A stretch of 64,000 bases of DNA from Amoebophrya sp. A120 (lineage: Eukaryota; Protista; Dinoflagellata), in the NCBI GenBank assembly GCA_905178155.1, contig CAJINV010000021.1:287760-351759 (forward strand). Direction: 5' to 3'. Positions 3,001-64,000 of the stretch are shown piece after piece. The translations under genes and the position numbers were made by a program. Each line of letters starts with the position of its first letter. Within the stretch, counting starts at the first letter, position 1. Under the pieces are notes generated by a model. It searched no databases and was not told where the DNA came from. It saw only the letters and a program-made list of their open reading frames with translations.

Positions 3001-6000
3001 CGGCGACCGCGATCGCGGAGCTGCAAGACGCGGGAATCTTCACGGTGATGGTAACCGGGGATAACTTGTGGAACGGATTGCACGTCGCAAAAGAGTGCGG
3101 CCTGATCCCCGCGTCGCATGCCGGATCCATATTACTGGCCGATGCGGAAGAAAAGAAAACGCCGACAGGAGCAAAGAGAGGGCAAAGGATTGTTGAGAAG
3201 AAAACCACTACTAGTAATCTACTTGCGGTTCCGAGCGCATCAATGGACGGAATACAAGGAGTTTTCATGAATAACGAGAAAAGAAAAGAATTTGAGGCCG
3301 AAGAAACAGGACCACCAGTAGACCACCCGGACGAGGACCAAACGACATCTAGCGGTACAGAAGAAGAGGACACTTCCTCTTCCGAAGATGACAACGAGGA
3401 TCTTGAGAAGAAACCAGTGGAAAAACAGCTTGTCTGGACCCGCGACATCCCGCTCCTCCAGGCCATCTCCCCCTCGAAGCCGAATGTGCGGGCCTCCCGC
3501 GTATTCGCGCGGGGGGCTCCGCGCGCCAGATGTTGCAGCTCTGCGGACCCGGGGTATGACGAGAAAATTGAGAGTTTGATCGAGGACGAAACGACCCTGT
3601 TTGGCGTCACGCAACACGCGTTCACGTATTTAAAAGAGCACGACCCGGAACTCCTGCACCAGATCTTCCCCCGGGTGGTGATTTTCGGCAGCATGAGTCC
3701 CCAGGGAAAAGTGGACGTCGTGTCCAAGTGGGGGGCTTCCAAAGTGGTCGGTATGTGCGGCGATGGCGGGAACGACTCGGGCGCTTTAAAAATGGCGCAC
3801 GTGGGCATGGCTCTAGTCCCGAAGGATGGAACGTCCGAAGTCTCGATCGTCTCGCCTTTCAGCAGCTCCGGCGGGGTCAAGCCGAAAGTTGGAGAGAGTG
3901 GCTCTTCAGCTGCTCAGGTTGAAGTTATTTCCCCCGCAGACCACGAAAAACGCCCCTTGCTGTTGGATTACAGCAGCGACGACAAAATAAACGCAGATAC
4001 GCATCATCATTCCGCGGCAAGCAAGCGAGAAAGGCGCGCAACGGAGCACGATGTCCCCGAAGAGCTGCACCCCGACCCGTCTATTCATTCCGTCGTGAGT
4101 GTGGTAAAAGAGGGCCGGGCTGTGCTGGAGAATTCCGTCGCCTGCTACCAATTTTTCGTGTACTACGGCTGCCTCTCCGTGATCTCCAAGATGTTTCTGC
4201 AGGTGCGCCACGGCTACTACAGCGAGTTGGTCTTTCTCTTCCAGGACGCTTTTCTGGTCGTAGCGGTCACCTACGCGATTGCTTCGTCCAAGCCGAGCCT
4301 CAAGGTCGCGAACTACACCCCGAGCGCGAACATTCTGGGCTACGAGATTTGCTGCGGGATTTTGTCCCCCATTGGCTTCTCCGTGTTGGCTTTGTTCCTC
4401 ACCTACCGGAGTTTAGACGCGCAACCCTGGTTCGTCGCGCCCGACCTCTTCGAGCTCAACATCGACGTGGCGGCTTGGTGGAGCAAGCAGGGCGTCTTTA
4501 CCGCCGCGGTCACGGGGAGCTGGTCCGTGCTCTCCGCGGTCGGCGCGGCGTTGCTCTTCTCCCTCGGCGGAAAGCAGCGGAGAGCCTGGTTTCGAAACTG
4601 GATCTTGCTGGTCGTAGTTTGTGTGGTGGTGCCACTCTGGACTTTTCTCTTGTTCACCGCGAACAACCCACTGAATTGCGTTTTCCGGGTGAATTGCGAC
4701 AACGAAACCAGTTGGGCGACGACGTTTCAGCCGCTGACGTTCTTTTTAAACACCCGGGAACTGTACAACAGCGCCGTGTGGTTTCAGGACGGGAGCGGGA
4801 AAACGGATTTGTTGTGGGTGTCCGAGCAAAAATTGTCTGGTATTGCGCCCTTTCAGGACCAGCCGGCCATCGCACTGACCGGGAAGTTCTGCGAAGCGGC
4901 CAGGGGGTTTCTGGAAAGCGAAAAGAACAACGGGCTGCCCGTGTGGACCAGAACGACGACCAGTGGCGCGGAACAATGTATAGGGGCGTGCTTCATTGCG
5001 TTTTCGTTCAATTAGAATTAGTTTTGCTTTGCTATAGTACGAACAGCGACGTGAGCTTTAGAATTGTCAGCAATGGAAGAGACTTTGTATACAGCAAGTA
5101 GTAGTGGTGCAGCCAGTGCGAACATTAAAACTGTATAGTTGAAGCTCTTGACTTCTGACAAATGCACACTGCAAACAGGCATCCTCGAGTTGGAGCTCGG
5201 TGCACCGGCTAGTTCATTCCAAACACCGTCGCAAAAAGCGTATCACTGCCAGCAGAGTTGCCGCGCCACGTGGTCGTTCCGCGGAGCCGACAACCCCGAT
5301 AGCCACGCCAACGACAATCGCTTTTTTTGCTGGTGGACCGCGGTGACGGATAACAGCTGCTTCCTGGTGCCGCGGCTTGACGCTGCGCGGAAACGCGCCA
5401 TGGGCCCGGAAAGTCAAAATTTTGTAAATGCACAGCTACATCAGCCAGCAGACGTCGCACTACAACCTGGAGGACAACAAGGGCGATCTTCGAATTTTCT
5501 CGGAGCTAACCGAACGCAGGCCGACGTTGTACAGACTCCATTCAAGGCTGACGCCATCGCGCTAAGAGATAGAACAGCGACCAACGCGAGCGGTCCCCAT
5601 AGAAATTCTCCGGAAGAGCCACCCCGTCCCCCGGTTGGGTTTGAGCAACTGAGCCTGAAGACTGTCCACTTTCGCAACGCGCACAACGTTATCAAATGTA
5701 AAAATGTCTGGGTCTGGAAGAATGCAACTTGTCATGCTAAATCTGAAGCAGGCAGAAATCTGTGTTGCATGATTACCAAATGTCGTCCAGTTTTGACCAA
5801 GTCGGAGGGGAGTTTCTCATGCAGGATAGGCATCAGAGGGATCGCACAGATTCTGTCATGCCAGGTCCTGCATTCCAGACCTCATGGGTCATGGAAAAAC
5901 TGCATGACAAATCGCGCATTCTTCCAGACCCAGACACTTTTACATTTGATAAATGTGCTTGCGTGGGAGCAGCCGGCGAACACACCGCTGGAGGAGTCAT

Positions 6001-7729
6001 TGACACAGCCTTATCAAAAAGAAAAATCCCCCCTCCCCATATCGAAAACGAAATTTTTACAACCGGAAGAGCCGTTTGGAAAACCGACTGCGTGATTGCT
6101 GCGGTTTTACACGCTAGCAACCTGAATAAAGCACAAACATAAGGCGGGCGCCGGGGATCGATTTCGCCGCATGGAGGCGCCTACTTTTGCAAGATCGTCT
6201 TGGCAACCAAAAGGGTTCGGGCTCTGGGCGCGATTTTATTGATAGATGGGCCACAGGAATTGACTTCCAAACGAGCCAAATGGTTTGGACCAGAAAAATA
6301 GTCCCAGGCAAGGGGGTTGATGCGGTGTGGCTATAATCCACCCTATTCGCAGGGCTTCCGCCTACGGAGAACCAACCTGGCTGAAGACGACGGCTGCTTC
6401 GTCCCTGATCTGGGGAAAGCTGGCCCGCCGGTCGTTGGGCTGGTGACAATAGGACGAGCCAGGCAACTGGTCGGGTTGGTTGGCCGTAGGACTACTCCCC
6501 GCCCCGCGCGGCGCACCCGGAGGCCTGTCTCCCACCGTGTTTCCGGGGCTTTTCCTTGCCCCGTTCGTGCGCCATCTCAAAGGCAAACCGGGGACCCGGG
6601 AACGGCCTTCCGCGGGATTATTCCAGGAAACGAAAAAGGCGACAAAAAAAAAAAGCCAAAAAAACCCAGCGTTAGCCCCGCGCCGTTTTTATCTTGCGGG
6701 CGCCTTTTTGTAAAAACGCAGCAAACACGCAGACGCCAAAAAAATGCCGGAATCTGCGGATACAGTTGCGGCGTTTTTAGGCAAATTGCCCAAAATCACA
6801 AAAGCGGCGCGCGAAAATTCGGATACAGCTGCGCAGTTTTACAAATGACGCGCAAAAAAGTGTTTTATTTTTCGCAGTGCCATCGTGATTGTGGTAATTT
6901 GGACCGTAAAAAAAACGACCGCGAGCCCGATACAGTTGCGGCGCATTTACGTTTTGGGACCCGGAAAGCGCAAACTTGCAGACAAAATCGCAGAATTAGC
7001 TGCGCGGTTTTAGGTTTTCAGCGGAAAAACGTGCGAGGTGTTGTGGGTTCCGCCCCTGTGGCCTGCCAAAAGCCGACAAAATCGAAACGCGAAACGGCGG
7101 ACATAGCCCCTGCGCATTTACAGACGAGGGGCCCCAACCCCGTGAGCGGTAGCAAAGACATGCACCTGCTGAAAACATCGCAGTTTAGGACTTGGCGGGA
7201 ATAATGAGCAAGGGGCCGGCTCATTTCTGTAAAACCGCAGCAATCACGCTGGCGCTATTCTTAACGGCCCTTTCGGCTCTAACGAAATTTGTGATGCAGT
7301 ATTTGAGTACACAAATCGCATTTGTCTTGCTGGAGGGGACTGCAGACCCATGCCAAGCCTGAATAGAGAGGCTTTGACTTAGGCGCTTAGCATGAAAAGC
7401 GTCCGCGATGTTGGCTCAACAGCATGACAAACCGGCTCCATAATGGGACGGAAGCTGCTGCCCTTGTCTTCTTGCAACACACACGTGATTTGTGACCTCA
7501 AATCAGCAACACAAATTTTCAAAAACCTACCTCTTCAATATGGGGAGGGGGGATTTTTCCTTGCGATAAGCCTTCGATAAACGCGAGAACGTTCTCGTGG
7601 ACCTTCCTATTTCTCGCCACACTTGCGATCGCCTTCACGATAAATGTGCTCATGAGCATTTTTGTGATCAAAGGCCCGGTGGGAGTCTGGTTGTCCGGGA
7701 AACTTTTCGGAGACAAGAAAAGGATGTGA
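19..7729 (+). CDS. P5(B)-type cation/polyamine-transporting P-type ATPase (ATP13A-like), multi-exon; the 5' end may lie upstream of the window
   Basis: Motifs LVPGD, PCDCVV, NESNLTGEAMPIQK, CFDKTGTLT (phosphorylation site), KGSP, MVTGDN, GDGGNDSGALKMAHVG and EGRAVL. Reconstructed exons ~19-954, 1103-1242, 1475-4977, 5179-5689, 5957-6011 and 7574-7729 (last TM helix SWTFLFLATLAIAFTINVLMSIFVIKGPVG). GT-AG introns 955-1102 and 4978-5178; the other three introns are TIR elements. Confidence 0.9.
1243..1469. mobile_element. Introner-like non-canonical intron (TAT...ATA class, decayed foldback)
   Basis: Imperfect TIR tatcatagttcaaaaacgca / tgcggttttgattttgata and inner IR ttaaaactaagcgggcc / ggccgctagttttaa. 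Flanks gtttg/gatgg. Removing element plus 5 nt restores the ATPase frame. Confidence 0.7.
5690..5951. mobile_element. Introner-like intron, TIR family A (tatcaaatgtaaaaatgtctgggtctggaa)
   Basis: ~35-bp TIR and 5-bp direct repeat aacgt/aatgt. Excision gives HNV|LAWEQP in frame. Confidence 0.9.
6012..7568. mobile_element. Introner-like intron, TIR family B (tatc..gaaaaatccccc-C-run-tccccatat), enlarged by a nested element
   Basis: TIR at both ends and perfect 5-bp direct repeat agcct (6007-6011, 7569-7573). Excision joins LTQP|SINARTFSW, the final ATPase exon. Confidence 0.88.
6091..7248. mobile_element. Non-autonomous TIR DNA transposon (MITE-like) nested in an introner
   Basis: 21-bp perfect TIR cgtgattgctgcggttttaca / tgtaaaaccgcagcaatcacg and 3-bp TSD ctg. 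Internal repeats gatacagYtgcg at ~6759, 6822 and 6929. No credible ORF. Confidence 0.85.
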
Positions 7730-15317: not shown

Positions 15318-15759
15318 ATGGGCAAGGGTAAGGCGAAGGGGAAGCAGAGTACGGTCTTCGAGGTCGAGAAGTACCACAACCAAATGGTGCATGTGAAATT
15401 CACCGGCGGCAGAGAGGGTACAACTGTTAATCATGCACGACAGATGATCAGTTTTTCTTTTTTCCTTTTCCCGCATGACAAACTGATTTTTGCTTCTTGA
15501 AATGAAAATATTGTAAATTGATGAATGCATAACCACAACAGTGAAGGGCATACTAAAAGGCTTCGATCCGGTTGTGAACGTGGTTCTCGACGAGGCAGAA
15601 GAATTTAGACGAGACCCCAAGGACCCAACCAGGGTACTGGAAGAGACGAGAAAACTCGGGCTCATCGTCTGCCGCGGACCGTCCGTTACATTAATCAGTC
15701 CGCTGCCGCAGGTCATCTCGCAAGAAGAACTGATGAAAGCCGCGGAGAATAACGCATGA
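15318..15759 (+). CDS. LSM7: U6 snRNA-associated Sm-like protein LSm7
   Basis: VKFTGGREV|KGILKGFDPVVNVVLDE...TRKLGLIVCRGPSVTLISP matches the LSm7 Sm fold. GT-AG intron 15418-15541. Confidence 0.9.
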
Positions 15760-16150: not shown

Positions 16151-16205
16151 TGGCGTTTGCGGATCTTTTTTCTCGCGACGATAACCTGGCGTTTGCGGAT
16201 CTTTT
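16151..16205 (+). repeat. Direct repeat tggcgtttgcggatctttt x2 upstream of the giant gene
   Basis: Two 19-bp copies at 16151 and 16187. Confidence 0.6.
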
Positions 16206-28700: not shown

Positions 28701-31700
28701 ATTTGCTGAACAAAATGGTCGCTTCGGTGCGAGAGCTGCACCAGCAGGTGCTGCAGCGGGTCATTCTCGTGGACGCAAAGGCCCTCGCGATTGCCAGCGT
28801 AGGGTCGGAGCAGGACTACAGCTTGGACAGCCAAGCCGGACTGGAGCAAGCGCTACAACGGTTGTCCCAGACCAGCAGTCTGGGCGCCGTGCCGAGGCAC
28901 TTGGACTACAAAAAGCTGCCGGTGGAAAGGCCGTTTTTGAACCTGATTCTCCGTCTGTGGCAGCAGACCGAGGTGTCGACCAGTATTGTATCTTCCACCA
29001 GCGGAGGTGGTCCTCGTGGTGCTGCCGCTGGTGGTGCAAGAACACAACTAAAGCAGTCCTCGAACCTTGCGGCCTTGTTTCCGAGCGAAAACTCGCACTA
29101 CCAGCTATATTTGCCCTTTGCGAAGAATAAATCTGTTAAGACGAGCATGAAGGAGAACACGACAGAGCCGCGGCTTCTCACTGCCAGGGCGCCCTTCACC
29201 CACCCGGCGGTACGGAACGTGCCTAGCCTGCAAAAAAACTTTGTGTTTTTGTCGCAGCTGCGCGCCTTCATCGCCCGTTTGGATGTGGGGGCGGACCTGA
29301 TTGACCGCCTGGCGCACAGAGCGAACGGCGCAGCGTCCAGAGTCGTCGACCTGTCTTCTCTGTCGCGTGTTGACCAGCTCCCAGCTGGAACTACTGTCTC
29401 TGCAAAATCATCATCTGCGACGTCACTGAAGTTGCCGACGGTCGGAATCGGAAATACGGCAGCCAACGAAGTTGTACCAGATCCAGACCCAACATCCGCG
29501 GCGTCCGAAATGGGCAAGCAAAGGCTCGCGGAACACTTTCGCTCCACCCCACTGGCGGCTGCGCAACGCAAGGCCCTGCGGACGCTGATCGATATTCCGG
29601 ACGATGACAATTTCGAGGTAAGCTGGCTCACTTGCTGGACCAAGCTGGACGATTTCATGCGCCAACACGCACCTCCACCAACTGCACCTCCTCCAGTCGT
29701 CGGGTCGCCTAATTTTTCCCAAACAACTTCTGGGCGTCAGCAAAAAACGCCACAGCAGGAAGATCTACTCCAGGAGGACGGCGGCGGTGACACTGTAATG
29801 GGAGACGAGAGCAACATCAAGGGCCCTTCTGGATCTGCAGGAGCCGCTGGTACAACAACAGCCACGAGCGCCGTCGACGCGCAGGCCGCAGCGGTTTTCG
29901 GTACGTCAGCAGCGGCGTGGATGGAAAAGGAAAGCTTTTCCGTGAAACTTCGGCGCAAGCGGGATCAGGAGGTGACCACCTTTCTCTCCGAGTGGCGCTT
30001 GTCCGCGAACACGGCCTCGTTTTTGCTTCATTCCTTGGGGCAAGAGAATTCGGCCGAATTCCTTAGTCGCCACGGCCCGGCGATAAAGGAGCAGATGTCA
30101 GATGTGGCTGCGAAACTGGATTTGGACCATGGTGCAGGAGGGCAGCAGCAGCAGCAGACCACAGATGGAGTCGGAGGTGCGAGCTCTCCAGCTCCGCCCC
30201 CTGTTTACCACAATACCTTGCTGCAGACCATTGCTCCGCTCTTTTACAGAGATTATATTTCCGCGGAGGTTGCGGTGCGCACCTTCAGCCGCAAACACGC
30301 CCCGGACCCGAAAAACTGCACTCCGAAGACCGCAGCGGAAAATTTTTCCAGCGTGTCCAGATGCACCCAGACCATGTTGCAAAATTTGTCACCCGAAAAA
30401 GCCGCGGAGTTTGGAGCGTTACTGTCCAGGTTACGGGGCTTGGGAAGTATGATGCAAGCGTTGTGGGAGGGTCTGCAAACCGTGTACCTGATGGGAGACA
30501 AGTTGCTCCGAAGGAAATCCTTTCTGACTTTCGACGTGTTGCGTCTCGCCCTATCCAGGAAAAAACACCCATCCCCATCCATTTTTTGCATGGCAAATAG
30601 TGGACTTTATGCATGTTTTGCATGACAATTGACAAATTGGATGGGGATGGGTGTTTTTCCTGGATACGCCCGACTCGGCGTCTACTGGGCGTTTGAAAGT
30701 AAAAGCGGCGACGAGAAAGACCAAGAGCTACTCAAAGCCGGCGTTTTGAGGAACGTAGGGTTCACCATTTTCCCGCCCGGTACGCCCCCGTACGCCATCG
30801 AGGTGTTAGATCTTTTGACCCGCGCAACTGGTGCGGCTGCGGAGAGGATTAGGATGGAAAAAAGGAAGAACAATAAAGTAGCAACGAGAACTTCTGAGGG
30901 AACTGGAACAACTACATGCGGTCGCGCCGCCCCTGCTGCTGCTCGTCCGAAGCTGGACACGACTAGCATGAGTGGAAACAAGAATTCTGACGACATGGAG
31001 ATCGAGCGAGAGCCTGTGGAAAGAAAGATTTCCAACGACAGTGAAGGTAGTAGTCGTGCTTCTACCGTCGGAACGGCAGTATCTTCCCCTTCCTGCGGCT
31101 CATCATTATCCTCTCCTGCTAGCACGACCCGGAAACCCCCCATTGTGCAGCGCACGCGCGTGAGCGTGAAGCTGGCGAGCGGCATCAAGGTCGAGGCTTT
31201 TTTAGTGAAGCACGACCTGATTGAGGGGCGCGCGGAGCTGAAGCTTTTTCCAAAGAAGCCCGATGTGCCGGACCGGCTTCACGCGGACATTCGCGATGTC
31301 GACGCGCCGGTGCCGAGCGAAGTCTTCGCGGAAGTAACAGCCACAGTAAACGGGTTTGACGATCTTGGCGACGGCCACAAGATGCAGACCGACGCGAAAA
31401 CCGGAAAACCGATGATAATGGTCGACTCGTCGGCGGTGCGGATCGAGGATATGCCTTACAAAAGCATCGTACTACTGTAAATTGCATTACAAATTGCCTT
31501 AGCATTACAAATAAGATTTTTAAGATTTGTAATGCGGATTTGCTGCATTTGCCTTAGAGGAAAAAGTAAAAGTTGTAATGCATTTACTGCAATTACTACG
31601 AGTGCGATCGCGATGCTTCTGCACTGCATCGAGGGCAGCTTGCTGCAACGGAAGCCGGTGGAGATAAAGAAGGACGGGACGGCACCGCGCTGGGTCTGCA

Positions 31701-37800: not shown

Positions 37801-40800
37801 CTGCCGTGCCCACTGCATCACACAGGTAGATGCCCAGAAATGAGATTTTTTGGGGTGCTCTGGTTGCCGCCCAGTCGTTGATGATGAAATCTGCCCACCA
37901 TCTCGCGGCCACCATCGTCACCGGGGTCTGACCTGAGAAATTACGGGAAATAGGATGGCACGCGGACTATAAAAGTGACCAAAAAGTGTCGTAGTCGTTG
38001 TTATCGGTTTCGGCCAGGGCCTCGGAAATCTGGCCAATTTGACCAGCAAAAGTGGCCATTTTTCCGAAGCCTCCGGGCAAACCGATAACAAGCACCCTTT
38101 TTGGTCACTTTTATAGTCCGCGTGCCCTCGTGCTACGTGTCTGTTATCGGTTTCGGCTTGACCACCCCACCGTGATAAAAATCTGTTATCGGTTGCGCTT
38201 TTGGCATCGCGCCAAATCCAACTTTCGCAAAGTAGACCCATAAACTTGAGCTAGCCACGACCTGAGTCGGACTATAAAAGTGGCCAAAAATGGTGCTTGT
38301 TATCGGTTTGGCCTTCTGAACCGATAGCAGACACCTAAGCACGGTGGCACGCGGACTATAAAAGTGCCCAAAAATGGTGCTTGTTATCGGTTCTGCCGGA
38401 GGTCCGGCAAAACGAGGGCACTTTCCCCCCCCAGAAAGGAGGTCCGGAGGGCCTCCGGACAACAAGCATCCCCCTTGCCCAAAAAAAAACCCAAAGAAAC
38501 TAGGAAACAGGGACGCCCACAGCTCTCCAAGCACTCCAAAAAGGAGTCCTTGTCAGCGCGCCGCTTCGCCAGCTTGGCGAGCGGATCGCCCTCGTCGATC
38601 TGCTTCTTCTTTGCCATGTCGATCAGCTCGTTCTTACACCCAAACCACCCCCCCTCGCACTGACAGCAGACGCGTCGCCGCCTATCAGCTTCCGGACATG
38701 CTTTGCAAGCACTCGCAGCCACACTGTTTTGTTGGCGCAGTTGGCAAGACAATATCCAGATCGGACGCGGAGTCTGGCCTGGGGTGACTGCGCGACACCG
38801 AACCGGAACACCACCGCCTCGAGATCCGCCGCGTCAAGTCTGCCGTCTGCTGCCCCAGAAGGATGACCAAATGCACACAACGAAATCAAAATAATCATGA
38901 CCGAAGATAGCTACCTCACTATCTAATTTTGAAAAAATTCTCGCTTTCGTTTCAAATTCTTAATTCGATAACGATAACAGATTTTTGCTCGATAAACCAG
39001 CCCCCGCACGCTAAAACCTACGCCTTCGTCAACTTCATCAACGAGGACGTCGCCCGCATCTTTTCAAATTTTGATAAGTGGCTGCCCACTTTCCAAATTT
39101 TGAAAAGATGCTGAAGGAAACATCTTTTCAAAATTCGACAACCCGAACAGCGCAAATATCAAATTTTGAAAAGATGCTCTTTCTGCATCTTTTCAAATTT
39201 TGATTGATAGGTGGCTGCTCACTCTCCAAATTTTGAAAAGATGCTGAAGGAGACATCTTTTCAAAATTTGACAACCTCAACAACGCAAGCACTTGCTTTG
39301 TTGAGGTTGTCAAATTTTGAAAAGATGTTTCCTTCAGCATCTTTTCAAAATTTGACAACCTTTTTGACAACCCCTTTGATGAGGTCTCCCAAGAGGCTAT
39401 TAACTTAACCTAATCCGCATGGTATGGTGGATTTTGATGAACCTGTTTGGGAACCTCTTTGGTGCGCCTAGACAGAGAATTGTTGACGAAAGTCCAAGGC
39501 TTTGGCTTGCGCTCCAGCTGGCGGGTCGCCAGATGGTAAGCAAAGCCGTGCCTCTGGCGACATTTGTTTGCTTGCCTCTTTTGTGGCTCCGAAGATTGCG
39601 AAGATGCCCCCTCAGCAAGTTTGCGAATTTTGAAAGCCACGCAGAAGAGTAGGCTGCTCACCCTTTCCGCGGCTGTCGAAATTTGAAAAGATGCGCTGGT
39701 AGTATCTTTTCAAATTTTGGAAGCCACAGAAGACTGAGCTGACCTCCCTTTGCGTGGTTTCTCAAATTTGAAAAGATGGTCCTTCTGCATCTTTTCAAAT
39801 CCTGAAAACCACAGCACAGCCAGCTGCTCTCCTCGTCTGCGGCATGTAAAATTTGAAAAGATGCTCCTTCAGCATCTTTTCGAATCTTGGCAACCTCAGG
39901 ACAGAAAACGGATCGGCTCTTCTGCGGCTTCGAAGATTGAAAAGATGCTCCTTTAGCATCTTTGCAAATTTTGAAAACCACAGACGCGTAAGCCGACCCC
40001 GTCTTCTGCGGCTTCAAAAATTGAAAAGATGCTCCTTCAGCATCTTTTCAAAGTTTGAAAAGCACAGAAGAGCAGGCGACCCTCCTGTTTTGCGCCTTTT
40101 GAAATTCGAAAAGATGTTCCTTCAGCATCTTTTCAAATCCTGGAAACCACAGAAGAGTAAACTGCTCGGGTCTCTTGTGGCTTCGTTATGGAAAAGATGC
40201 TCCTTCAGCATCTTTTCAAATTTTGCAGGCCAAAGGCCACGCGCTTCAGATTTGAAAAAATGCTGAAAGGGCATCTTTTCAAATCTCAAGAACCACAGGA
40301 GAGCACAGCAACTTTTTCGCCTGTTGGTTTTCAGATTTGAAAAGATGCGCCCCGAGGTATATTTCCCCGCTTCAGCCGTGTCCACATTTGAAAAGGTTGC
40401 GCCATGAAGCACGAGCCACCTCGTCAGGGGTTGCTCGCTCCTCAGGTCTCCCAGATCTCTCGACCCCTTTGGCTTCTCGGACAGCTGTGGTCTGTGCGCG
40501 CCTCCCTATTCTACCTAGACCTCCCATTCCAGTTGGCTTTTCCGGGTTTCCCAGCCTACGCCGCCTGTCCTCATTTTACTGGGCGCGCGCCAAGTCCTGA
40601 ACCGCTAGGGGTTTGGGAAGCTGCGCAGAAGATGCGGCGGGCGTTGTTTCCGAATCAGGCCCAAGCCAGGCCGGGGCAGATAAGAGGGGAGGCGCAGCCT
40701 TTCGCTCGGCTGCGCTTTGTCGAGGGTAAATTGGCCGGGGGCATTTTCCGCGTTTGTCGCTATTGCCGGGTGCCTTTCCTTACCTGCGCAAGCAGAGGCG

Positions 40801-43800
40801 CGCTCAGGGCCCATGGCCTCATATGATTGGGAGGCTCGTTTGGGTGGCTTTTCTCTTTGGGGTGTTTGGCTTGCGTTTCTGCCCCGGGCCTCGGGGCAGA
40901 AATAGGGCAGCCCGGCTTGACGCGTTTGCAAAGGCGGACGCGCAGCCGCCATCGAAGAGGCGCTACCCGATAATCGGCGAGGGCGCCGAGCAATCAACTG
41001 GCCAAAATTTGAAAAGATGGGCGAAAAGGTGGAAATTTTAGGGCCTTCATAAAACCTACGCCTTCGTCAACTTCATCAACGAGGACGTCGCCCGCTCGTT
41101 TTTGCTGCGCGCCGCCAAGGGCGAGCTGGCGGCGAAAACCTTCCGCCGGGTGAAAATTGCGGCCAAGCAGGGGTTCGCGCGACAGCTGCAGAACTGGGTG
41201 AATCTAGATACAGAAAAGGATACGGGAAAATTGAAAACCTACGAGGACGACCAAGGGAAGGTCAGGACACGGACCACGGGCAGACAAGTGGCCGGTTCGC
41301 AGAGTATAAGTTGTGTAGTTGTTGTGTTGTTGACCACTGAATTTCTTAATGATTGAAGATAAAGTTATGCTCTTGAAGATATTTTTGTCTACGAGTACGA
41401 CCTCCATCGATCTCCAACTCCAAGTTCAAGAAGTGTCTGTTCTTTCCACTGCAACTTTGTGATATTCGGCGGCGATCGTAGGTTTGTGGATCGTTAACAT
41501 CTACGAAATGAAGATTTTTGAAAGGATAAGGAGTGGCAGAAGATCGCATCATCTTCACCGGCAAAGCACGAAGATTCTCGTCGCGCTACTCTAACTCTTC
41601 ACCTTTACAACCTGCAAGTAGTCCTCTATTGCATGCGTATTTGTAAAATGAAAAAAACTATACAGTTCTTGGAATTTCCCGCACGGCGCGCATCCACAAT
41701 AGCCACTTCGTACCCTTGATTTTCAAGCGGTCTCCACAGAGCGAGCCGGCAATGGCCTCGCAGGTGTCGTCGAGGATGCCTTCTAGTACGGACGCCGGAA
41801 TATTAAATCAAGGTGAACATCAAGGTCCTGCTCTGCGCATGCGCACCCCCTACGTGAGCCACGCGTTCCGATTGACCCCTGATTTTCCGAAAAACTTGCT
41901 GGCAGTGGCGCTGGACGTGGAAGGGCCGTACTTGCGCGAGCACGACGTGCGAAAGAACCGCGTCCCGGTTTATCGTGCGGAAAAATCCCCCCTCCCCATA
42001 TTGAGAAGGTATATTTTCGAAAATTTGCGTTGCTGATTTGAGGTCGCAAATCACACTTGTCTTGCAAGAAGAGAAGGGCAGAAGCTGCCGCCCCATTATG
42101 GAAGCGGCTTGCCATGCTGTTGGGCCTAAAGGGCAGCCGTTTGCCATGCTGAACAACTAGACCCATACGCCCCACCTAGCCTGGGGCTCTGGCCGCAGTG
42201 TCTCTCTGGAATACAAAGCTGATTTGTGTACACAAGTCCAGCATCAGAAATTCCTTTTTGATATGGGGAGGGGGGATCTTTCCTCACAATACGGTTCCGG
42301 ACGGGTACAGTTCGCGGGCGTGGCGCAGCCTCGGCTGGATCGTAGAGCAGTGGTATTACAATGAAAAATGCCCCCACCCCCAAACTTGAAAGCATTTGTA
42401 TTGCAAACCTTTCCAAATGAAACATTCGCCCTCTTGCATGTATCAGTACACAGATTTCCGATCGTGAATAGCAAAAATTTGTATTGCAAAAGATCCCAGC
42501 AAGAGCGGTGCTTGTCATGTAAGCGATGCGAAACACGACTACAATCTGCATCAGAAAGATTCATACTCCTTTCATGCATGACAAAAAGTTTTCATTTGGA
42601 AACTTCGCATCACAAATTTTTGCAACTTTGGGGTGGGGGGCACTTTTCACTGTAATAAGTGGCGCCGCGGGTGGGTGTACGCGGACGAGCGGCAGAGGTC
42701 GTTGTGCGCTGAGTACCGACTGAGCCCCTTCGCCTATCTTGCGTGGAAACGCCTCCGGGCCACGCGAGGGATGTACCACGTGCCGTTTCTGCCACTGTTG
42801 CCGGATGTTCTGCCGCAGCCTCACGGCACGACTGGTGAAGAAGATGAACAACGTCAGGGTCGTGATGCTTTCTCGTCGAGTGCTGTGCACTTTGTCAGCA
42901 AGGGCGTGCGATTTACAGAGGAAACCGCAACGGCCTTGTTAACCGCCCTCGTGAAGCCAGAGAACCTCGCAAAAGTCCGATTTCCCTTCCCGAAGCAGGC
43001 CAACAGAAACCTGTGGCAGAGGATTCAAGCCGGAGAAGACGGGAAGAGCGCACTTTCAGGTACGGAGTGTATTAGGATCTACAACAGTACTTGCTATGTA
43101 TAAAGTAGAATGATAAATTGGATTTTTACTCTCGGTTGTTGATAAGGTTGAGATGCAGGTCATTTTTCATCCTGTAATAGTGAATGACGGCATCCAATAC
43201 AAATTCTAATTCTCATCTTCTTCTTCCTTCAAGTTGTACATAGATGATCATGATGTGTTTCTCTACTTAGCGTTAGCAATCTTTCAAGCCGTGCAACCTT
43301 TTCCTTCAGGTGTTAATTGTACTCCTGAAGACCACGAGCAACAAGATGCAAATGCGGCTAGACCAAGAAGTAGACCATTGGAGCAGCAGCCGCAGCCTGA
43401 ATTCAAGCCGTTTGAACCGAGCGAGACATACAAGAAGTTTTTGGCGCAACACGGGCATCATGATGCAGCAACCGGCTACGCACCTGTCCTGGATGCTATG
43501 ATGAAGGACACAGTCTTTTTGGAGTCAATGAATCGCACCGTTGGGGCGGAAGCATCCTGGTTTCGAGAATTCTGCAGCCAACAAGGGCAAGAACCAGCTG
43601 CGTCTTCTGAAAGAACAAGAAAAAGTGGCACAACATCCAGAAATTCGGCCGGACGATCTTCTGGGTCTGGCGCAGCACCACGTATGCCTGCTGCATCCGC
43701 CAGCTCCGCCTCGGCCGCGGCCGCACCACAATCGAAAAAAGCCCCTAGAAATTATGCCACCGCTGCATCAGCACATGGTGCGTGTGGACCAGACGCGAAG

Positions 43801-48354: not shown

Positions 48355-51300
48355 ATGCGGTCGCGGCGTCCTTCGATGGCTCTATTGGTAGCTCTTGCTC
48401 TACCTCTCTGTCGTCATTTTTTGGTCCAGTCCGTGAGTGCCGAAATCTTCACTGGCACTGTCCGTTCGTCCACGGAGTGGCCTGTGGTGGTTGCGAAGTT
48501 TGTGTACGACTACAATCCCGCTTGTTTTCCCCCGTCGTTCTGCCGCCCAGACCAATACCCGGGGGAACTGGACTTAACATACGAAGTGACCACCATCGCT
48601 GATGACGGAACAACAGCTGGAAGCTCCTCCGGGGGAGATGCAGCAGCTTCGGCGTTTGGTTCCACGACAAATGGGAATGGGGCAAACAGCGAGGCAGCTT
48701 CATCCGCCAACACTCTACATTCCTCCCAGTCCACGCTAGCTCGGTATGCGGGCCGGAACGCGAAACAGGAGGACACGCAATTTTATTTCGGGTTGCTGGA
48801 TGATGAAATCGCCCAGTTTCCGCGCCTGTTCCCGGCCGGTACGGTGTCCTTTCTCGGAAGCCCCACACAATCCGCGTACGAGACCTGCGATCAGGCTATT
48901 CTTTGAAAATTTACCATGATGCATCTTTCCGTCCATTTTTTGCGAGACCGAATACAGAATCTAGATCTGCGTTCACATGTTTTGCATGACAAAAATTGGA
49001 TCATGCTGGGGATCATGGTCAAGTTTCAAAGAATACAGCTGTTCAACAACGTCGCCGGCAATTGGCTCCGACTGGAGCAAGGCGACGGCGAGATGGTCAA
49101 AGTGACGGATGACGGGGACATGGGTGCAGCCGCCGTTCCGGCTGGTGCTGCCGGAATGAATATGAATAACATACTGCTTCGGGGCGGGAGCCCAGCAATC
49201 TCAAGCGCTTCATCGAAACTTCCTTCCACCGGTTCTACTCCAACAGCGTCGCAAAACCCCTTCGCGGCTTGGTTTGGCGGTGGGCAAAGTGGTGGACCCA
49301 CGTCCGCGGAGATTGCGGGGAAGTGCACCGCCACGTGGTCCGTGGCGTTTGCAAATCAGTACCTTCTCGGCTGCGTTCCGAACGACAATTGCAAACCCTG
49401 GAGCACGATGGAAGCCGCGAAGCGTGCGTGCATCGCCCAGGGCCCGAACTGCGGCGGGATCGTGGGGGCACCGACTGCCGATACTGCAAGCGGGGGGAGC
49501 AACAGTAATATTGACGCCGGGCAGCAGGCAGCCGCTCCCGCGAATACTAACTTGCAGTGTCGCGCGTTCAGCCACGCTGTAAACCACTGGGAGATCCGGG
49601 AGGGGAGGGAGGTGCTTTACGCAAAGGACCAGAACGATTTGGCCGCCCGGGAATCGAAGGAAATCGCGTACAAGAAGACCAGCACAAACAGCAACACCGC
49701 GATCACCTTCGCGCCCGGGGAGCCCTGCGCGTGGCTGGCCAACTGCGTCGCGGGCGACGAGTGCAAGAAGTACTACCAGCGAAGTGACGCCGAGCGAGCC
49801 TGCATCGCCGCGGGGGAGACCTGCGGCGGGATCGTGTCCCGCCCCTGCGGCGGGGACAGCCGAATCGCGTGCGACGAAGAGTCGGCCGGGCGGCTGGGCT
49901 CCTCCTCGCCGATCCATCCGGAAAACATCCACCACTGGGAGATTCGAAGGGGCGCCAGCCCGATGGGCCACACGCAGGAGGTGAGCTACCTGAAGCACAT
50001 GTCCCTGGACTGCGACGTGGTGCCAGCAACCGGAATATCCTGTGCAAAAGTATCGTACTCGTACTAATTGCAGATATGCATCACAAATCCAACTTTCTAC
50101 CTGAAATAGCATGACAAATTGAATTTTTTTCTTGGAAAAATTTGTAATGCATTTTAATGATACGAATACTATACGGTACTTTTGCAATGCATACGGAAGC
50201 TCAGAAACCGTGGACGGCGACGGGGACGCCGCGGTGGCGACACTTCAGCTAGGCGACGCCAGTACAACGAATAATTCTAAAACCCCCTTCGTCTACCTGA
50301 AGGGGCGGCATCGGCAATCCATCCTGCAGAAGTGCAGGCGTCGCGTTTGGCACTTCTTGTTTCTCGCCTGCAGCGACCGACCAGCCGCGGGAGGTGATAC
50401 AACTTTTTCGACGATCACCGGGCAGCCGCTGTACGAATTCAAGTACACGATACGGGCTCGAAATACGCTCAATGGCTGGGAAACCGAACTGGGCGCCGAC
50501 GAAAACCAGCTGTTTCCTATTTTGCTCTTTCAAATTTTCTTCCTCGGCACGTTATCTTGGCAATTACGACCCAAGATGTTCTCGATCTCGACGGCATCAT
50601 CAAATGTTGGAGGTTCTACATCGCCTTTCGAAAGAGACCTCAACTACGCGTTTGCCGGGGAGTTTTTCGGCCCGCGCGCGATCCGGGGGAAATTCTCCCT
50701 CACCGGATTGGTCCAGCACGGGACGTTCATTCTTTTCGCCGCAGCGGTCGTGCGTGCGGTGGATTACCCTCTGAAAGCGTTTTCCGGGCAGCATTTCGCT
50801 TTTTTCGGCTTTGTTGACTTCACAACCATCGCAAGTCTGGTCGAGGCGGCGGGGAAAGCCTGTCTAAACCTGATCTTCCTCTTCTGCGCCAGCCAGTCCC
50901 CCAGCCAAATCAGAAGGTCCGCGGCACGGTTCGTTTCCCAAATGCGGAAATCGAGCAATTTAGTGGACGGTAGTACGTCTGCGTATGCAGGAGGAATATC
51001 CCTTATTTCTACGTCCAACTCTGCCACCAGTTACTACATCCGCAACCTGGCCGTGCTTTTTTTCATTTGCAACGTCATCTTAGACCAGTGGTCGCGCGCT
51101 CGGCACCTGAAAACACTGACCACCGTGTACCAGTACGACACGGCCCCGGGGGAGATCGTGGTTTTGCTGGATGTGGCGATGTTGGTTCTCGTTTGTTTCC
51201 TTCTATTCCGTTCCTTCTACGGTGACCCAAGGTATCGGTCCAGATTGTTCTTTCTGCGGTACGGCGGCCTGTTTCTGTTCTGGTTCGCAACTTTGCCCGC

Positions 51301-59045: not shown

Positions 59046-60040
59046 ATGCGGGCGCTCCGGTGGTTCCAGCACAGCACACTCCGGACGGTGGAAGGCGAAA
59101 AAAGGGCGTGGCAGATGGCGCAGGAACAAAGCGAAGCCGGAGGGGAAGAGGAGTACGCCAGTCGGCTGGAGCTATGTCAGCGAACAGGCGTCCCGCCGGT
59201 GGAAACACTTATACGAGAGCGGAGAGTGGCCTGGGCAGTCCATGCACTTCGCAACAGACGAGAGGCGTGCCACTATCTGGTCCGGGAGGAAATCAGGAAG
59301 CGCACACCCTGGGGCAGGATGTTGCAGGACGACTTTGAAGCGGTAGCGCTACCACTAGAAGGAATTCTAGAGATGGAAAAACCGCCAGCCGCCACGGCAA
59401 TCAAGTCGCACCTGGTCACACACCGGCCCACGAAACCACTGCCGAAGGAACGAAAGGGGGACAACCGTGGAAAGACGAAAGCCTGCAAAGAAAAAACCAA
59501 ACGCCAGAGCGAGAACATACAGCGACAAAGAGAGGAAGCACAGCGGCAGATGCAGGACTTCATCGCGGAAATCAGCGGCAGGCGCTGGGAAAGAGTTCCC
59601 AGTGCCGGAGGCAAATACTGGCAAACGACGAAAACCGACGACGATCCGACCGCGGTGCAGTTCGAAATTGAAGCCGAGGACTTTTGTGAAAGCACCGGCC
59701 GAGAAGAATACAGAGTGTGCGGCGTCTGGTTCCAGAAGATGAGTGATGGAACCTACGCCGCCAGAGCGGTGTGAACGAAAGAAGAAGGAAGTGATGATGA
59801 TGAAGAAGATACATTTGTAAGCACATCCGAGAAACGCGTGAGGAAACGATGAGACTCTCAAAAGGATACAAGCTTGTTGTGAATGAATGAATGAATTTTC
59901 CTTTTTGTTTTTTCTGCGTCCTCTAGAACCCAACGGCATTCAGGAATTAATATCAAAACAGGGACGCTAGATTACGGGCAGGCAGTACCCAAAGCCAGAG
60001 GCGAAGGCCATTGGAGTACAGCGTCACGTAGCCTATAAAA
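59046..60040 (+). mobile_element. 5'-truncated non-LTR retrotransposon (RTE-like) 3' fragment
   Basis: LIRERRVAWAVHALR...RTPWGRMLQDD resembles the post-RT IRxRRLxWxGHxxR...WxxxxxxD motif of RTE-type LINEs. Followed by a 3' UTR with (gaat)n and a short A-tail. No TSD resolved. Confidence 0.6.
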
Positions 60041-60835
60041 ATCTTGTTCTTCCACTTCCTCGTTACTAACGAGGACTACTTCCACGGTCAATCATCAATC
60101 GTTTCGACTACAACTACGTTCGCACCAAACTACAACATGCATGTATAATTTGTTTATTAGGGCGCCTGCTTGTTTTTGCATAAAGGAAGCATCTAATTAG
60201 CTCGTGCTGTGCTGAAATATTGTTTTCTACGCCATCAACTAGGAGGGGCTGATCTAAGTGCTTACTTTATTTGTTTTAAAGTACCTGGTGAGATAGTCAG
60301 GGCTCGTTCTCTTCTGCAGCTCTCTATTAGCGACGTCAAGAACTTTTAGTATTAAACTCGATACGATATTTACATTTTCAACACTACGAATTTAAACTCG
60401 GGAAATTGTCTATAACACATTACGAGCGACTACAACCGAAATACGCGATTTTCTCTTTCGGAAATAGATGACATTGGTATCGCGTTAGCTTTAGATTAGT
60501 GTCTGCGTTGAACTGCGTCTAAACTTGAAGTCAAGTTGCTATAATTTTGATTTCTCAGCTGTGACATTATAGATTCGCTTTTATTTCTTGAAAAGAGCAT
60601 CAGCTAAAGGGCACACTGGTGCCAACATCATCATCATCAGCATATGGCTTTATCTTGAAGAGGTATAGCATCTAGGACAGAAGAATCGTTGATCGTGTTT
60701 ATTGATACGATCAAGATCCGGCGGAACTACACGAACACTTACACCTGAGTTCGATAAGTATTGTCAGTATAAGCGATTACAACTCTACCTTTACGCAGCT
60801 AGTACATCTTCGACAGACGAGGATCGTCTAGCAAC

Positions 60836-63800
60836 ATGCCGAGCGACGGCTATCACACGACCGCATCGGGCGGCGCATCAAGTAGAAATTTGCGACCACC
60901 CTCGACGAACAACAAGAACCACCGATACGACCATGCACAACAACGACAACGCGACGCCCCCTTGTCTTCGGCGTGTCGTGACGGAGGTGATCATGGCGGG
61001 GCGGGGGGACCAGGACCAGCAGCACGAGTTTCCATTTGTTCACGGCAGCCTCAGCAAGAAGCCCAGGGTTTTTACAATCTGTCGCAGCAGCAAGATTTGC
61101 GTACAACCCGTACTACGGGCTTGAATACCAGTAATGGCCAGAATTTATTTTCAGCTTCGGCCCAGCACGACCACGACCACACTTATGGGAGGATGAACCC
61201 CGATGACCTACTGCCCGATTCTTGTCCTCATGTAATCAAGGGGAAGGGGCGGGGCGGTAGTTCACCCGGTAATCATTTTCAGCAGGGACCACCACACCAA
61301 GAGCACTATGGCTATGCAGGTGGCCATACGTCGTCGCAAGGTGGGCCGCCGCGTGCTCCCACTAGTAGCCTCATGATGCACAATCAGCCACAGCACAAGA
61401 AAGTTAGTTATGGAAAAAATGGACAACCAGGCGCTGACTATACGTACCACGATCATGATGCTCCTTCCAACAAGGGCGGGCATGATCATGGCCATGGGGG
61501 GAAAAATAAAGTGAACAAAAACTACGAGGATGGCCCTGCGAAGATTGCTTCGAACGAGTCCTTGAAGATGATGATGACTAAGGGCAAGGGAAAGAACGGG
61601 ACCGCGACTGGTGGCACTGGTATGATTTTTGCTGCATAAATTCAAAACATCAACATAGGTACTTAACTGAATCAGAATCCGTTGCGTATGAAGATTTCTT
61701 GGGCTTCTTGTCCATGAAATAATAGCTGTGCGAGCTTGGTGCAGTCGTTTTTGTGCTCCGTACTAGTTTTTCACTCCTTCTCCCTGATACTGATAGGTGG
61801 CGAAAACTTGCATGATAATGAAACAGTACAGATGGTCGTCGTCTTCCGCGTTCTTGAGACTTTCACCGGAAGCTTCATCTCCTCCAATATTAAATAAAAG
61901 GTGCTTCATTTCTTTTGCCGCAGAAGAACAACATCACGAGCAAGAAAGGTGCTGGCCGAGGAAAGCCTTTGTTTCACCCCGCTGGTAAGGACGTAGGAAG
62001 AGGAAAATCAAAGCACCAGACGGGGGTCACCAACAAAGAATTTTTCTACACACGTCGTGAGGACTGCACGTCGACCAGTGATGGAAAAGGAAATGGCAAC
62101 AGTGATCTTTTCCTTTGCGGCGAAAAGGAAAATTCGACCGGAGCAGTGGTTCCTGCTGTGGTGACAGCAGGCAAGGACTGCGCGTATAACGTGAACCATC
62201 CCGCGAATTACTCAGTGCGGACGAAACTACAAAATGCTATTAGCAACCAGTCTCAGTCAAAGGGAGAACTCCAGGCGGGAGATGGTTCTGAAGGAGGGGC
62301 AGCGGGGGATCACAGGCGGCAGATGCGAGGAGGACACGACCACCAGCCGCAAACGGTAACACAGAAGGAGCAAGTGGTGCCTGCAAAGAGTATCCTCTGC
62401 AAAAGTATCGTCTAATTGTGGCCATACATGTCAGACTCAGATCTGCTTTCTCATTCTCACATGAATCTGAGTGACGAAGTCCACTGACTTTGTTTCCCTC
62501 TTGACAAAAAATGTGATGAAGATGCAGCTGTAAAGTGCTTTTCCTTTTCCACCTCCAGTAAAATAAAGTAGTACGATAGTAATAGTTAACAGTACTTTTG
62601 CATTTGCATAAAGATTGGCTCGAGGCCGCAACTTGTTCCGGAAGTAGATCAAGATCTGCGCATTCGGCAGAAAAAGACCGACTTTATTGTGGTGGCTTCC
62701 ACTAGGCTGCAATCGGGGCTCGAGGAGCCGGAGTTGGAAACACTGGCAGAATATCAAATGCAGAAATGTCTGGGTCTGGAATGTTGCCGGGTTTGTCATG
62801 CATATTTTGCATGACCCAGGAGCAGGATGTCTGTAATGCACGACCTAGCATCACAGATTTTTAGGGGGCTTTCTGGCGCGTATTCCGCATGAGAAATGCC
62901 CTTTCCGTGTGGCACAAAGTAGACTTCTCTTGCTGGTCAGGCAATACAGATTTTTTCAGAGTCCACCAAAGCTAGCATCACAAGTTCCAACCTTCCAGAC
63001 CCAGACACTTTTGCATTTGATACAGAAGAGCTGGGGTTGGACTACATCGTGGAATCTCTCCCACCGCATCCGGAATCGCTGTCCGCTATCTGGTATGCAG
63101 TGCAAAAGCATCGTGCTAGTATAAATTGCAATACAAATTGGCTCAGCATTACAAGTTAAATTTGTGATGCGGATTTCCCTTAGCACTAAGATTTGTATAT
63201 GCATAAATGTACTTCGTTAGAAGTACGAGTGCGATACTTTTGCAGTTCATATCTGGGACCCCGAGGGGATCCGCGTGAGGATCTTGAAGCAATACGTGGC
63301 GGAGCAGGATCAAGATCAACAGCAGCGACAAGGACGTCGCGGGGAGCACCTCGTGCTGATGTGCGGACGAACCACGAGCGGACTTCCCCGGTCATTCAAT
63401 AATCGCCGCGGGGATTCTGCTTCTGGTTCTTGTTTGCGGGCCGCGGACGGACACGGAGTAACATCAAGTACTACTACCTTCGAACGCCGCGGCGGGCGGG
63501 GGAAGAACGCCAACGCGGGTGGTCATGGACGGGGGGAATTGAAACTGCTGATCTGCTGTCTGCAGGGAACCAGTCACATCCAGGCCTTCGCACGGGTCCA
63601 ATACGCGTTCGATCGATTACATCGCATTAACAGTGACGTTTGCCGACGGTTCTCATTTGTTACAGCTGCTCACCAGCAAAGCCGGCTGCTGCGGCGCTCC
63701 ATGGTGATTTCCATCCCGAAGGACATCCTTATGGGACTCTCAAACGTTACATTCTCAACTGTTACATGATTTGTCATGCAAAATGAACATCAACATCCCA

Positions 63801-64000
63801 CAAGGTGAAACTACTTCGCATGACAAATTTTTGAAAGGCTAAACAGCGCCTAAATCTGTGCGGAATTTGTAATGCTACAGGTGCGCCCTCCCTGCTTTGA
63901 CTTTTGCCATTCTTGCATCACAAATTCATGTAACAGTTGAGAATGTACTAACAGTTGAGAACGCCATAATCCTCAGCCAGCAACTGGAGGTCTACAACGT
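60836..64000 (+). CDS. Hypothetical protein, 3'-partial, with a G/H/K-rich N-terminus and four introner introns
   Basis: Open frame reconstructed across the elements: KSIL|CIKIGSRP...LAE|ELGLDY...WYA|VHIWDPEG...LSN|AIILSQQLEVYN. Exon structure at 61620-61923 unresolved. Confidence 0.6.
62398..62602. mobile_element. Decayed introner-like intron, TIR family C
   Basis: tgcaaaagta / tacttttgca ends. Removing element plus 2 nt gives the only long open frame. Confidence 0.7.
62752..63022. mobile_element. Introner-like intron, TIR family A
   Basis: TIR tatcaaatgcagaaatgtctgggtctggaa / ttccagacccagacacttttgcatttgata and perfect direct repeat cagaa. Confidence 0.92.
63101..63244. mobile_element. Introner-like intron, TIR family C
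   Basis: tgcaaaagcatcg / cgatacttttgca, interior homologous to 31457-31623. Removing element plus 1 nt restores the frame. Confidence 0.88.
63748..63959. mobile_element. Introner-like intron with a partly duplicated right TIR
   Basis: 22-bp perfect TIR tacattctcaactgttacatga / tcatgtaacagttgagaatgta (ends 63947), then an extra taacagttgag. Flanks aacgt/aacgc. Confidence 0.82.

Follow-up and report, generated by a model that had tools for sequence, protein, structure and literature searches.

Introners of the dinoflagellate Amoebophrya sp. A120 were described by Farhat et al. (2021; PMC7789003) as elements with inverted repeats made of TAT, seven variable bases and AAA, flanked by direct repeats of 3–5 nt and grouped into 1,954 families; a hairpin was proposed to join the exon ends, and the accessible part of that text reports no transposase for A120. 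Internal binding sites are described for two other kinds of element: the protein of the Lemi1 transposon binds subterminal repeats of the Emigrant MITE (PMC1636448), and TnpA binds clustered 10-mers in Spm elements (bioRxiv 10.64898/2026.08.24.746577). TA..TA termini combined with a short target duplication (TSD) and no target preference are known from IS3EU/GingerRoot and Ginger elements (PMC10045372; PMC6839031), and the supplement of PMC12130899 classes A120 family 38 as Ginger-like, giving it TA/TA ends and a 5-bp TSD.

The window analyzed here, a stretch of 64,000 bp from A120, contains 16 TIR elements (6,286 bp in total) that share organism, non-canonical introns and terminal consensus with the introners of PMC7789003 (Table 1). 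The protein encoded at 12257–13000 is 100% identical to one recorded for Amoebophrya sp. A120. TAT...ATA is present at both ends in 15 of them, TIR positions 11–14 are mostly A, and one TIR is common to 5690, 36723 and 62752. In contrast to the direct repeats of 3–5 nt given in PMC7789003, we find a uniform 5-bp TSD outside TAT...ATA. The original prediction held that the TIRs differ completely. This was overstated, because the 16 elements form one class, united by TAT...ATA-type ends together with a 5-bp TSD. It also missed three elements (36075–36351, 37470–38994 and 62391–62610), and four of its element starts (31457, 50043, 63101 and 63748) are corrected to 31450, 50036, 63094 and 63730. 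The elements 5690 and 62752 are homologues in opposite orientation, as are 6012 and 41971; excision of 5690 with one TSD restores a plus-strand ORF. A further candidate from a blind scan (33002–33564) was dropped for two TSD mismatches and weak arms. Many DNA contigs pile up on the window elements, which are repeated in the genome.

Table 1. Elements and introns of the window, with motif sites (position within the element and strand, unless stated otherwise) and the length skipped in RNA runs
Feature	Positions	Strand	TSD	Motif sites	Skip in RNA (runs)	Remarks
Introner	5690..5951		AACGT/AATGT	39-, 70-, 124-, 163-, 181+, 213+		TIR TATCAAATG..GTCTGGGTCTGGAA
Introner, CCCCTCCCCA TIR group	6012..7568		AGCCT	42, 75 nt from left end; 53, 85, 137, 169 nt from right end		323 bp without nested element
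Nested TIR element, other class	6057..7282		at least 8 bp			1,226 bp; own internal repeats
GT-AG intron, LSM-domain gene	15418..15541	+		exact 15473, weak 15435; 38 nt apart		boundaries inferred from reading frame
Introner	30552..30666		CGCCC	sense 37+, 69+; 32 nt apart	120 nt (4/4)	spliced
Introner, GCAAAAG(C/T)ATCG TIR group	31450..31630			35+, 53+, 77-, 123-	186 nt (4/4)	spliced; one irregular end
Introner	36075..36351		GTTCT/GTTGT	two weak antisense, 74-, 170-	282 nt (2/4)	spliced
Introner	36723..36973		GATGT	32-, 80+, 102-, 139+, 172+, 203+	256 nt (4/4)	spliced
Introner	37020..37327		ACTTC	41-, 73-, 145+, 177+, 209-, 259+	313 nt (3/4)	spliced; TIR of 58 nt, takes in outer motif copy
Long TAT...ATA element	37470..38994			four internal, none near ends		probably composite; exon duplication of ~50 bp at flanks
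Introner	41971..42291		CGGTT	54-, 86-, 138-, 170-, 271+
Introner	42354..42657		AGTGG	42-, 125-, 158-, 195+, 215-, 223+, 254+
Introner	48897..49035		CAGGC/CAGCT	88+ only, 42 nt from 3′ end
Introner	50036..50193		CGGAA	43+, 74+, 106-
Decayed introner	62391..62610		AAGAG/AAGAT	0		excision restores ORF
Introner	62752..63022		CAGAA	41-, 79-, 97+, 136+, 173-, 190+, 224+
Introner	63094..63251		TCTGG	35+, 53+, 68-		homologue of 31450
Introner	63730..63968		ATCCT	41-, 89+, 137-, 186+

For comparison we used 649 kb of loci from a close relative with 97% protein identity to A120. BLAST matches among these loci were obtained for 12 of the 16 window elements, with up to 91% identity, and the sequence logo of 435 elements from the relative starts with TAT, followed by an A-run about seven bases later. 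No target-site preference was found. The elements resemble IS3EU/GingerRoot and Ginger in their TA..TA termini and short TSD without target preference. However, the TSD of IS3EU/GingerRoot is usually 6 bp long (PMC10045372) and here it is 5 bp, no integrase-like DDE transposase was found in the window or in the relative's loci, and we do not assign the elements to that group. The accessible text on IS3EU/GingerRoot and Ginger (PMC10045372; PMC6839031) mentions no internal binding array.

Removal from RNA was tested across 17380–37379. In one sample, RNA-type contigs skip all five elements of this region exactly, each as the element plus one TSD, and the TSD in the RNA joints measures 5 bp as in the window DNA. 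The runs concerned (X3–X6) were taken as RNA because two GT-AG introns are also skipped in them. Two raw RNA runs (X10 and X11) placed 2 and 3 reads, respectively, on 44100–64000. GT-AG or GC-AG is possible at any sliding register in only 11 of 156 exonic elements of the relative.

Inside the elements lies one recurrent motif of 10 letters. GCATNACAAA occurs in 25 exact copies in the window (15 on the plus and 10 on the minus strand), against a mean of 0.65 and a maximum of 3 in 100 shuffles, and 24 of the 25 lie within the 16 elements, where shuffling the elements themselves leaves 0.16 expected copies. When one mismatch is allowed, 51 sites fall inside the elements versus 16 in the remaining 57,714 bp. 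The consensus of 66 window sites is GCA(T/A)(G/C/T)ACA(A/G)(A/G)T; its variable fifth position is never A (0 of 66). Variation among sites is lowest at positions 1–3 (G, C, A) and 6–8 (A, C, A). The nested 6057 element served as a negative control and contains no site. In favor of class specificity, four other insertions of the window (5,358 bp) are free of sites. An Rfam search of the window gave no match and viral scans found nothing; a prokaryote scan returned four isolated matches. Two matches from a metagenome scan look like chance matches in non-introner DNA.

The enrichment claimed in the original prediction is borne out, and the motif positions it quoted agree within 1 nt. Among the 12 elements it named as rich in the motif, 11 carry an exact copy and, with one mismatch allowed, 10 carry copies in both orientations; two one-mismatch copies each are present in 30552 and 41971. 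Of the three elements added here, 37470–38994 has one exact copy deep inside, and 36075–36351 and 62391–62610 have none within one mismatch. The claim that ordinary GT-AG introns are poor in the motif needs qualification, as the single exact copy outside the elements (15473) lies in such an intron.

The motif could simply reflect common ancestry of the element interiors. Only 3 of 120 pairs of window elements appear homologous, which argues against a by-product of alignable sequence. A motif matrix trained on the window only was then applied to the relative. It found the motif in 326 of 328 elements that the search pattern did not match. The motif is also present in 41 of 42 pattern-independent family representatives, and it is shared by at least 17 TIR groups and by 48 interior families. 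The proposed family-independent cis-signal is therefore upheld. Mismatch to the family consensus amounts to 9.9% in motif columns and 9.7% in TIRs compared with 21.7% in the other interior, and the motif columns lie below the interior in 13 of 13 families. Since terminal features and TSD length are the same throughout, the class is likely to have a common origin. A weak motif copy is present at TIR positions 4–13 of 12 of 84 ends. Nevertheless, we regard it as highly improbable that the motif is a passive relic of one ancestor with internal repeats, devoid of current function: its columns change half as fast as adjacent ones, paired sites keep a spacer of fixed length though unrelated sequence, and the number, order and orientation of sites vary among families. 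A deep shared ancestry of the families, beyond the reach of alignment, is possible.

The transcript strand of the relative's elements was called by a codon model. Sense and antisense sites are equally frequent (642 versus 621), so the strand bias considered in the original prediction is absent, and they are equally conserved (mismatch 10.1% and 9.5%, p = 0.27). Asymmetric families insert both ways (39/33, 31/24, 24/17 and 16/21 copies). One family of 46 copies has its six sites all on the same strand; among its 41 oriented copies, 16 are fully antisense, and both orientations occur at the same locus. These observations bear on a signal acting in RNA, for example a branch-site box some 40 nt upstream of the 3′ end, carried on both strands. 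The U-N-A-C core does resemble a branch-site box, a sense site lies 37–44 nt from the 3′ end in 9 of 16 window elements, and predicted RNA folds pair 31 of 62 sites chiefly with a second copy. In the relative, however, a sense site 36–45 nt from the 3′ end is missing from 210 of 291 oriented elements, 33 of the 291 have no sense site at all, and 5′-only cases outnumber 3′-only cases (40 versus 15). Duplexes between motif copies are impossible in the one-strand family, two elements that have no sense site near the 3′ end, 31450 (none in the last 110 nt) and 36075, are spliced, and the sites are phased with the period of B-form DNA (see below). Because of the balanced strands, the two-way insertion of the one-strand family and splicing without a sense copy, we hold an RNA splicing signal to be very unlikely. 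Of the two functions offered in the original prediction, the data agree with the first, a binding site for a shared transposase or host factor; the second, an RNA splicing element, finds no support.

The arrangement of the sites follows the geometry of double-stranded DNA. Same-strand distances of 31–33 nt account for 13 of 46 in the window, in 13 independent elements (null mean 1.1, maximum 6 in 3,000), and for 32 of 127 in the 42 representatives of the relative (null mean 3.6, maximum 12). Opposite-strand pairs in the relative (n = 121) show a period of 10.45 bp with a Rayleigh value of 24.1, which was reached by none of 600 nulls that keep the 31–33 pairs. Twelve window elements alone give the same period and phase at p = 0.28, and same-strand phasing beyond the 31–33 pair has p = 0.11; the two strains from which these data derive are closely related. 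A distance of about 40 nt from the element end stands out in the window (12 of 51 sites) and is family-dependent in the relative, where 17 sites compare with a null mean of 7.0 and a maximum of 21 and a second class lies at 30–31 nt. Such phasing (10.35–10.45 bp), the A-rich 3′ half of the motif and the relation of introners of other algae to nucleosome linkers (PMC9860276) would suit an effect of DNA shape or nucleosome positioning, by A-tract bending or wrapping, in which no protein reads the sequence. We consider this improbable: the invariant positions lie outside the A-tract, which is the profile of base-specific recognition, and element lengths (106–385 bp) have no clear period.

In our view, the motif array probably represents double-stranded DNA binding sites of one protein, a shared transposase or cofactor, and is likely needed for jumping. 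This putative protein would bind as a unit over a pair of direct copies separated by three turns of the helix, and several units facing the same side of the DNA could build a complex that holds both ends together. One integrase-like enzyme system, recognizable by TA..TA ends and a 5-bp TSD, may serve all families, which would be free to drift in the interior and in the core of the TIR as long as they keep the motif and the terminal TAT-N7-AAA. Splicing would proceed separately, directed by the TIR hairpin and the TSD rather than by the motif. Subterminal repeats of this kind are found here in both orientations inside the ends, more conserved than their surroundings. As in Emigrant/Lemi1 and Spm/TnpA, a short motif is clustered in both orientations in a non-autonomous TIR element, and in those systems cooperative binding depends on site arrangement (PMC1636448; bioRxiv 10.64898/2026.08.24.746577). 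In those accounts, as far as accessible, the protein is known and the motif either belongs to a single family or duplicates a stretch of the TIR, whereas here it crosses the TIR groups and families counted above and is distributed over the entire element at a fixed pair spacing and in phase with the helix. We found no candidate for the binding protein and no autonomous element in the window or in the 649 kb of loci. Transposases were sought by inspecting ORFs, with crude integrase patterns and with Pfam on four ORFs, and none was found.

Indifference to strand and phasing along the helix would suit any DNA-binding protein, including a host protein that reads the phased array in chromatin after insertion and acts, for example, by polymerase pausing, loading of the splicing machinery onto non-GT-AG introns or chromatin opening; the array would then be a DNA-level intron mark working in either orientation. 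We see this as possible though unlikely; in its favor, 15 of 87 predicted TIR-free GT-AG introns carry the motif. These contain 20 sites (16 antisense, 4 sense) against 2–3 expected, at a density of about 1.0–1.3 per kb (1.03 versus 0.18 in intergenic DNA and 0.08 in exons), and some have two sites 33 or 38 nt apart; the sites may be relics or host-maintained. In addition, new insertions cluster at 25–115 nt from members of other families (143 of the 376 gaps; null maximum 101), and motif divergence climbs by only 0.25 per unit of interior divergence, remaining at 11% in the most diverged copies, a constraint that is also compatible with continuing host selection. A survey of A120 (PMC7789003, in the part available) did not detect U1 snRNA. 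Gaps between neighboring insertions have no helical period, and no paralogous insertion pairs, which would report decay after insertion, occur among 443 elements. Against a host mark, 36075 is spliced with just two weak sites, and neither 72 of the 87 GT-AG introns nor the window's two RNA-confirmed GT-AG introns have a strong site.

A host mark is further disfavored by the pattern of constraint. Mismatch is alike (9.9%) for copies in predicted non-exon and exonic context, and the ratio of motif to interior divergence is 0.42 for shared changes, 0.69 for private changes and 0.68 in the 14 closest pairs; saturation affects this ratio, which stays below 1 for private changes. Judged from these sequence comparisons, the rise from 0.42 to 0.69 and the equal conservation outside exons suggest a role in mobility rather than in splicing. 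A more specific version seems rather doubtful to us: a host protein on phased arrays would mark introns for removal during transcription, replace U1-based recognition of GT and draw new insertions beside old ones. If true, introners would have spread owing to a strand-independent DNA code that some GT-AG introns keep, and intron definition would be written in double-stranded DNA.

The terminal repeats of these introners were already known. The array of one motif across A120 families has apparently not been described before: PMC7789003, in its available text, treats terminal repeats only and says nothing of a motif in the interior, its spacing or its phase; its supplement text lacks the motif string; and our search of accessible literature text found no description of the motif, the string matches among those listed falling under unrelated titles. 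In A120, non-GT-AG introns number in the tens of thousands (PMC7789003). An internal code of fixed geometry common to the families argues for one system served by one protein, for which two direct copies 31–33 bp apart would be a precise bait. The motif may also serve as a marker for decayed introners and for introns turned GT-AG, and it allows mobilization and splicing to be tested separately. For the splicing of these introns, one candidate for the missing RNA signal is removed, which directs attention back to the TIR hairpin and the TSD.

The window contains 25 copies of the motif GCATNACAAA where 0.65 would be expected, in agreement with the predicted enrichment over background, and 24 of these exact copies lie inside 16 elements totalling 6,286 bp. 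A motif-blind search that required TAT...ATA ends and a 5-bp duplication yielded 13 elements and one candidate that was later dropped; three further elements with less regular arms were found by hand. When element interiors were searched without a prior motif, the 7- and 8-mers common to the most elements were motif fragments. Deletion of the element and one TSD copy restored a long + strand reading frame in 16 of 16 cases, and RNA-type contigs of one sample exactly skip element plus TSD in all five elements of 17380–37379 (120, 186, 282, 256 and 313 nt), as they likewise skip two GT-AG introns. One protein of the window is identical to a record named Amoebophrya sp. A120. The elements agree at their ends with the introner consensus published for A120 and are members of that class (PMC7789003). 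Four other window insertions, including a TIR element nested inside introner 6012, contained no motif sites.

Features of the window and of loci (L numbers) of the close A120 relative
Feature	Position	Remarks
Introner clusters (start positions)	5690/6012, 36723/37020, 41971/42354, 62391/62752/63094	
GC-rich block	9330–10800	63–66% GC; without motif; no Pfam match for the one ORF tested
LSM-domain gene	15319–15760	intron after GGRE plus one base
TIR insertion of another class, 660 bp	17417–18076	exon duplication of ~50 bp on flanks (near 17382, 18091); without motif
GT-AG intron, RNA-confirmed	32523–32721	very end of long gene, adjoining apparent stop codon
Exon piece of ~50 bp, three times	37416, 38995, part at 41051	flanks element 37470–38994 and the tandem array; presumably holds an RNP1-like sequence; all within 37416–41100
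85-bp tandem array	39570–40225	palindromic units
242-aa ORF	59046–59774	in multi-copy stretch (variant contigs); no Pfam match; presumably like the tail of a non-LTR retroelement
Same GC-rich insert, ~800–870 bp, twice	L007:505–1608, L039:16949–18096	each copy inside an introner, the two introners being of different families; identity 87% across 543 nt; without obvious TIR
Motif pairs in predicted GT-AG introns	L076:7323–7440, L024:4569–4742, L058:6261–6395	

The original prediction held that the motif is more than the common ancestry of alignable interiors. With 35 nt cut from both ends of each element, 2 of the 120 interior pairs were clearly alignable even with the motif masked, and a third (31450/63094) before masking; two of these three pairs lie in opposite orientations in + strand genes. 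Thirteen independent interiors are left once homologous pairs are reduced. Judged by these alignments, the presence of the motif is not simple homology of the interiors. A larger test set came from a pattern scan of metagenome contigs, which gave at least 137 stretches in at least 133 loci, at least 131 from one assembly. Since one protein in it shares 97% identity with the A120 orthologue, this set represents a close relative, not an independent lineage. Of the 435 elements that a motif-blind scan located in the listed loci, 107 fitted the search pattern and were excluded; 326 of the remaining 328 carry a site (matrix trained on the window). The elements up to 420 nt form 48 interior families, and sites were found in 41 of 42 representatives of families without any pattern-matched member, which supports a motif shared across families.

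In 13 families, each with six or more unmatched copies, mismatch to the consensus was 9.9% in motif columns, 9.7% in TIRs and 21.7% in the remaining columns (the motif columns were picked from the consensus, which slightly favours conserved ones), and motif windows ranked below most non-motif windows in divergence. Spacing is also regular: 13 of 46 same-strand distances in the 13 independent window elements measure 31–33 nt (null mean 1.1, maximum 6), and 12 of the 51 sites in these elements end 37–44 nt short of the terminus towards which they are directed (null mean 2.1, maximum 8). Among the 42 family representatives of the relative, 32 of 127 distances fall at 31–33 nt (null mean 3.6, maximum 12), with spacers between paired sites alike in length, not in sequence. 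End distances in the relative are less uniform than in the window, with peaks at 30–31 and 40–41 nt and 17 sites at 37–44 nt (null mean 7.0, maximum 21). The 121 opposite-strand pairs in the relative are in phase with a period of 10.45 bp, to a degree that none of 600 nulls reached; with a single family drawn for each of 17 TIR groups, the median Rayleigh value was still 11, a figure without a matched null. The window alone shows the same phase and period, but with p=0.28. As B-form DNA makes one turn in about 10.5 bp, this period puts the sites on the same side of the helix. The motif array is a real feature.

Recognition of the motif in RNA by the splicing machinery, one reading of the original proposal, is unlikely, as several observations speak against it. 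Sense and antisense sites number 35 and 31 in all 16 window elements, and 642 and 621 in 291 oriented elements of the relative, 33 of which lack a sense site; no strand bias appeared, and both kinds are conserved equally. One 46-copy family carries six sites as three pairs, all on the same strand; of the 41 copies with a known orientation, 16 are antisense throughout, and single loci (e.g. L013, L023, L074) hold copies in either orientation. From their position in coding frames we infer that the wholly antisense copies are spliced. Introner 36075 is spliced without a sense site and introner 31450 without one near its 3′ end. Neither a strand-specific RNA signal nor a motif–motif RNA duplex can account for these cases and the antisense copies. 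A TIR hairpin was predicted in 15 of 15 folded elements (15–24 of the terminal 25 nt paired), in line with the hairpin proposed in the literature. Reading of the motif at the DNA level is well supported.

A simple gene model, used on the relative's loci, predicted both RNA-confirmed GT-AG introns of the window exactly. Site density per kb is 14.5 in elements and 1.03 in predicted introns (homologues masked) versus 0.18 in intergenic DNA and 0.08 in exons, and among 87 GT-AG introns that were predicted with high confidence and have no TIRs, 15 contain sites (16 antisense, 4 sense). Both observations, and the low motif divergence even among the most diverged copies, would speak for a host role, which we consider unlikely. 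The motif/interior divergence ratio is 0.42 for shared changes, 0.69 for private ones and 0.68 in the 14 closest pairs; because constraint is weaker in recent, copy-specific changes and does not vary with exon context, we favour, with some reserve, a motif that serves mobility. Interior divergence is no higher in copies with a TSD mismatch than in those without, which suggests that it mostly predates insertion. A mobilising protein would thus be the more probable reader of the motif, and a host factor with a role after insertion the less probable one.

The distribution of insertions suggests that new introners insert beside existing elements: 143 of 376 neighbour gaps in L001–L076 measure 25–115 nt (null mean 80, maximum 101), only six fall below 30 nt, and elements that lie close together seldom belong to the same family (4 of 106). 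Predicted exons hold 352 of 391 elements and make up 57% of labelled bases in L001–L076, an excess that the gene model may inflate. TA..TA ends, together with a short TSD, suggest that the enzyme behind the elements is integrase-like, and PMC12130899 annotates one A120 family as such; the TSD of IS3EU/GingerRoot is usually 6 bp, whereas that of the window elements is 5 bp. In its action the motif may resemble the binding repeats that lie subterminally in MITEs and Spm elements, a likeness that implies no membership. Unlike in known cases, one motif spans many TIR groups and fills the whole element, its pairs fixed in spacing and its sites in phase with the helix. The literature searched, with some figures and supplements beyond its reach, held no description of the motif.

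At least one of the site-bearing GT-AG introns, that of L076, looks like a decayed introner with donor G|TAT, and conversion of introners into ordinary introns is a possible route. GTAT is the top donor (49 of 87 predicted GT-AG introns), as expected from a G preceding the TAT terminus. Predicted GT-AG introns of L001–L076 are A/C-rich over the last 30 nt, with no polypyrimidine tract there, and their top 5-mers include nothing that is obviously a branch consensus. The LSM-domain gene of the window, which we take to be LSm7-like, may share its intron position with human LSM7; if this is true, its intron would be an old one containing a perfect motif.
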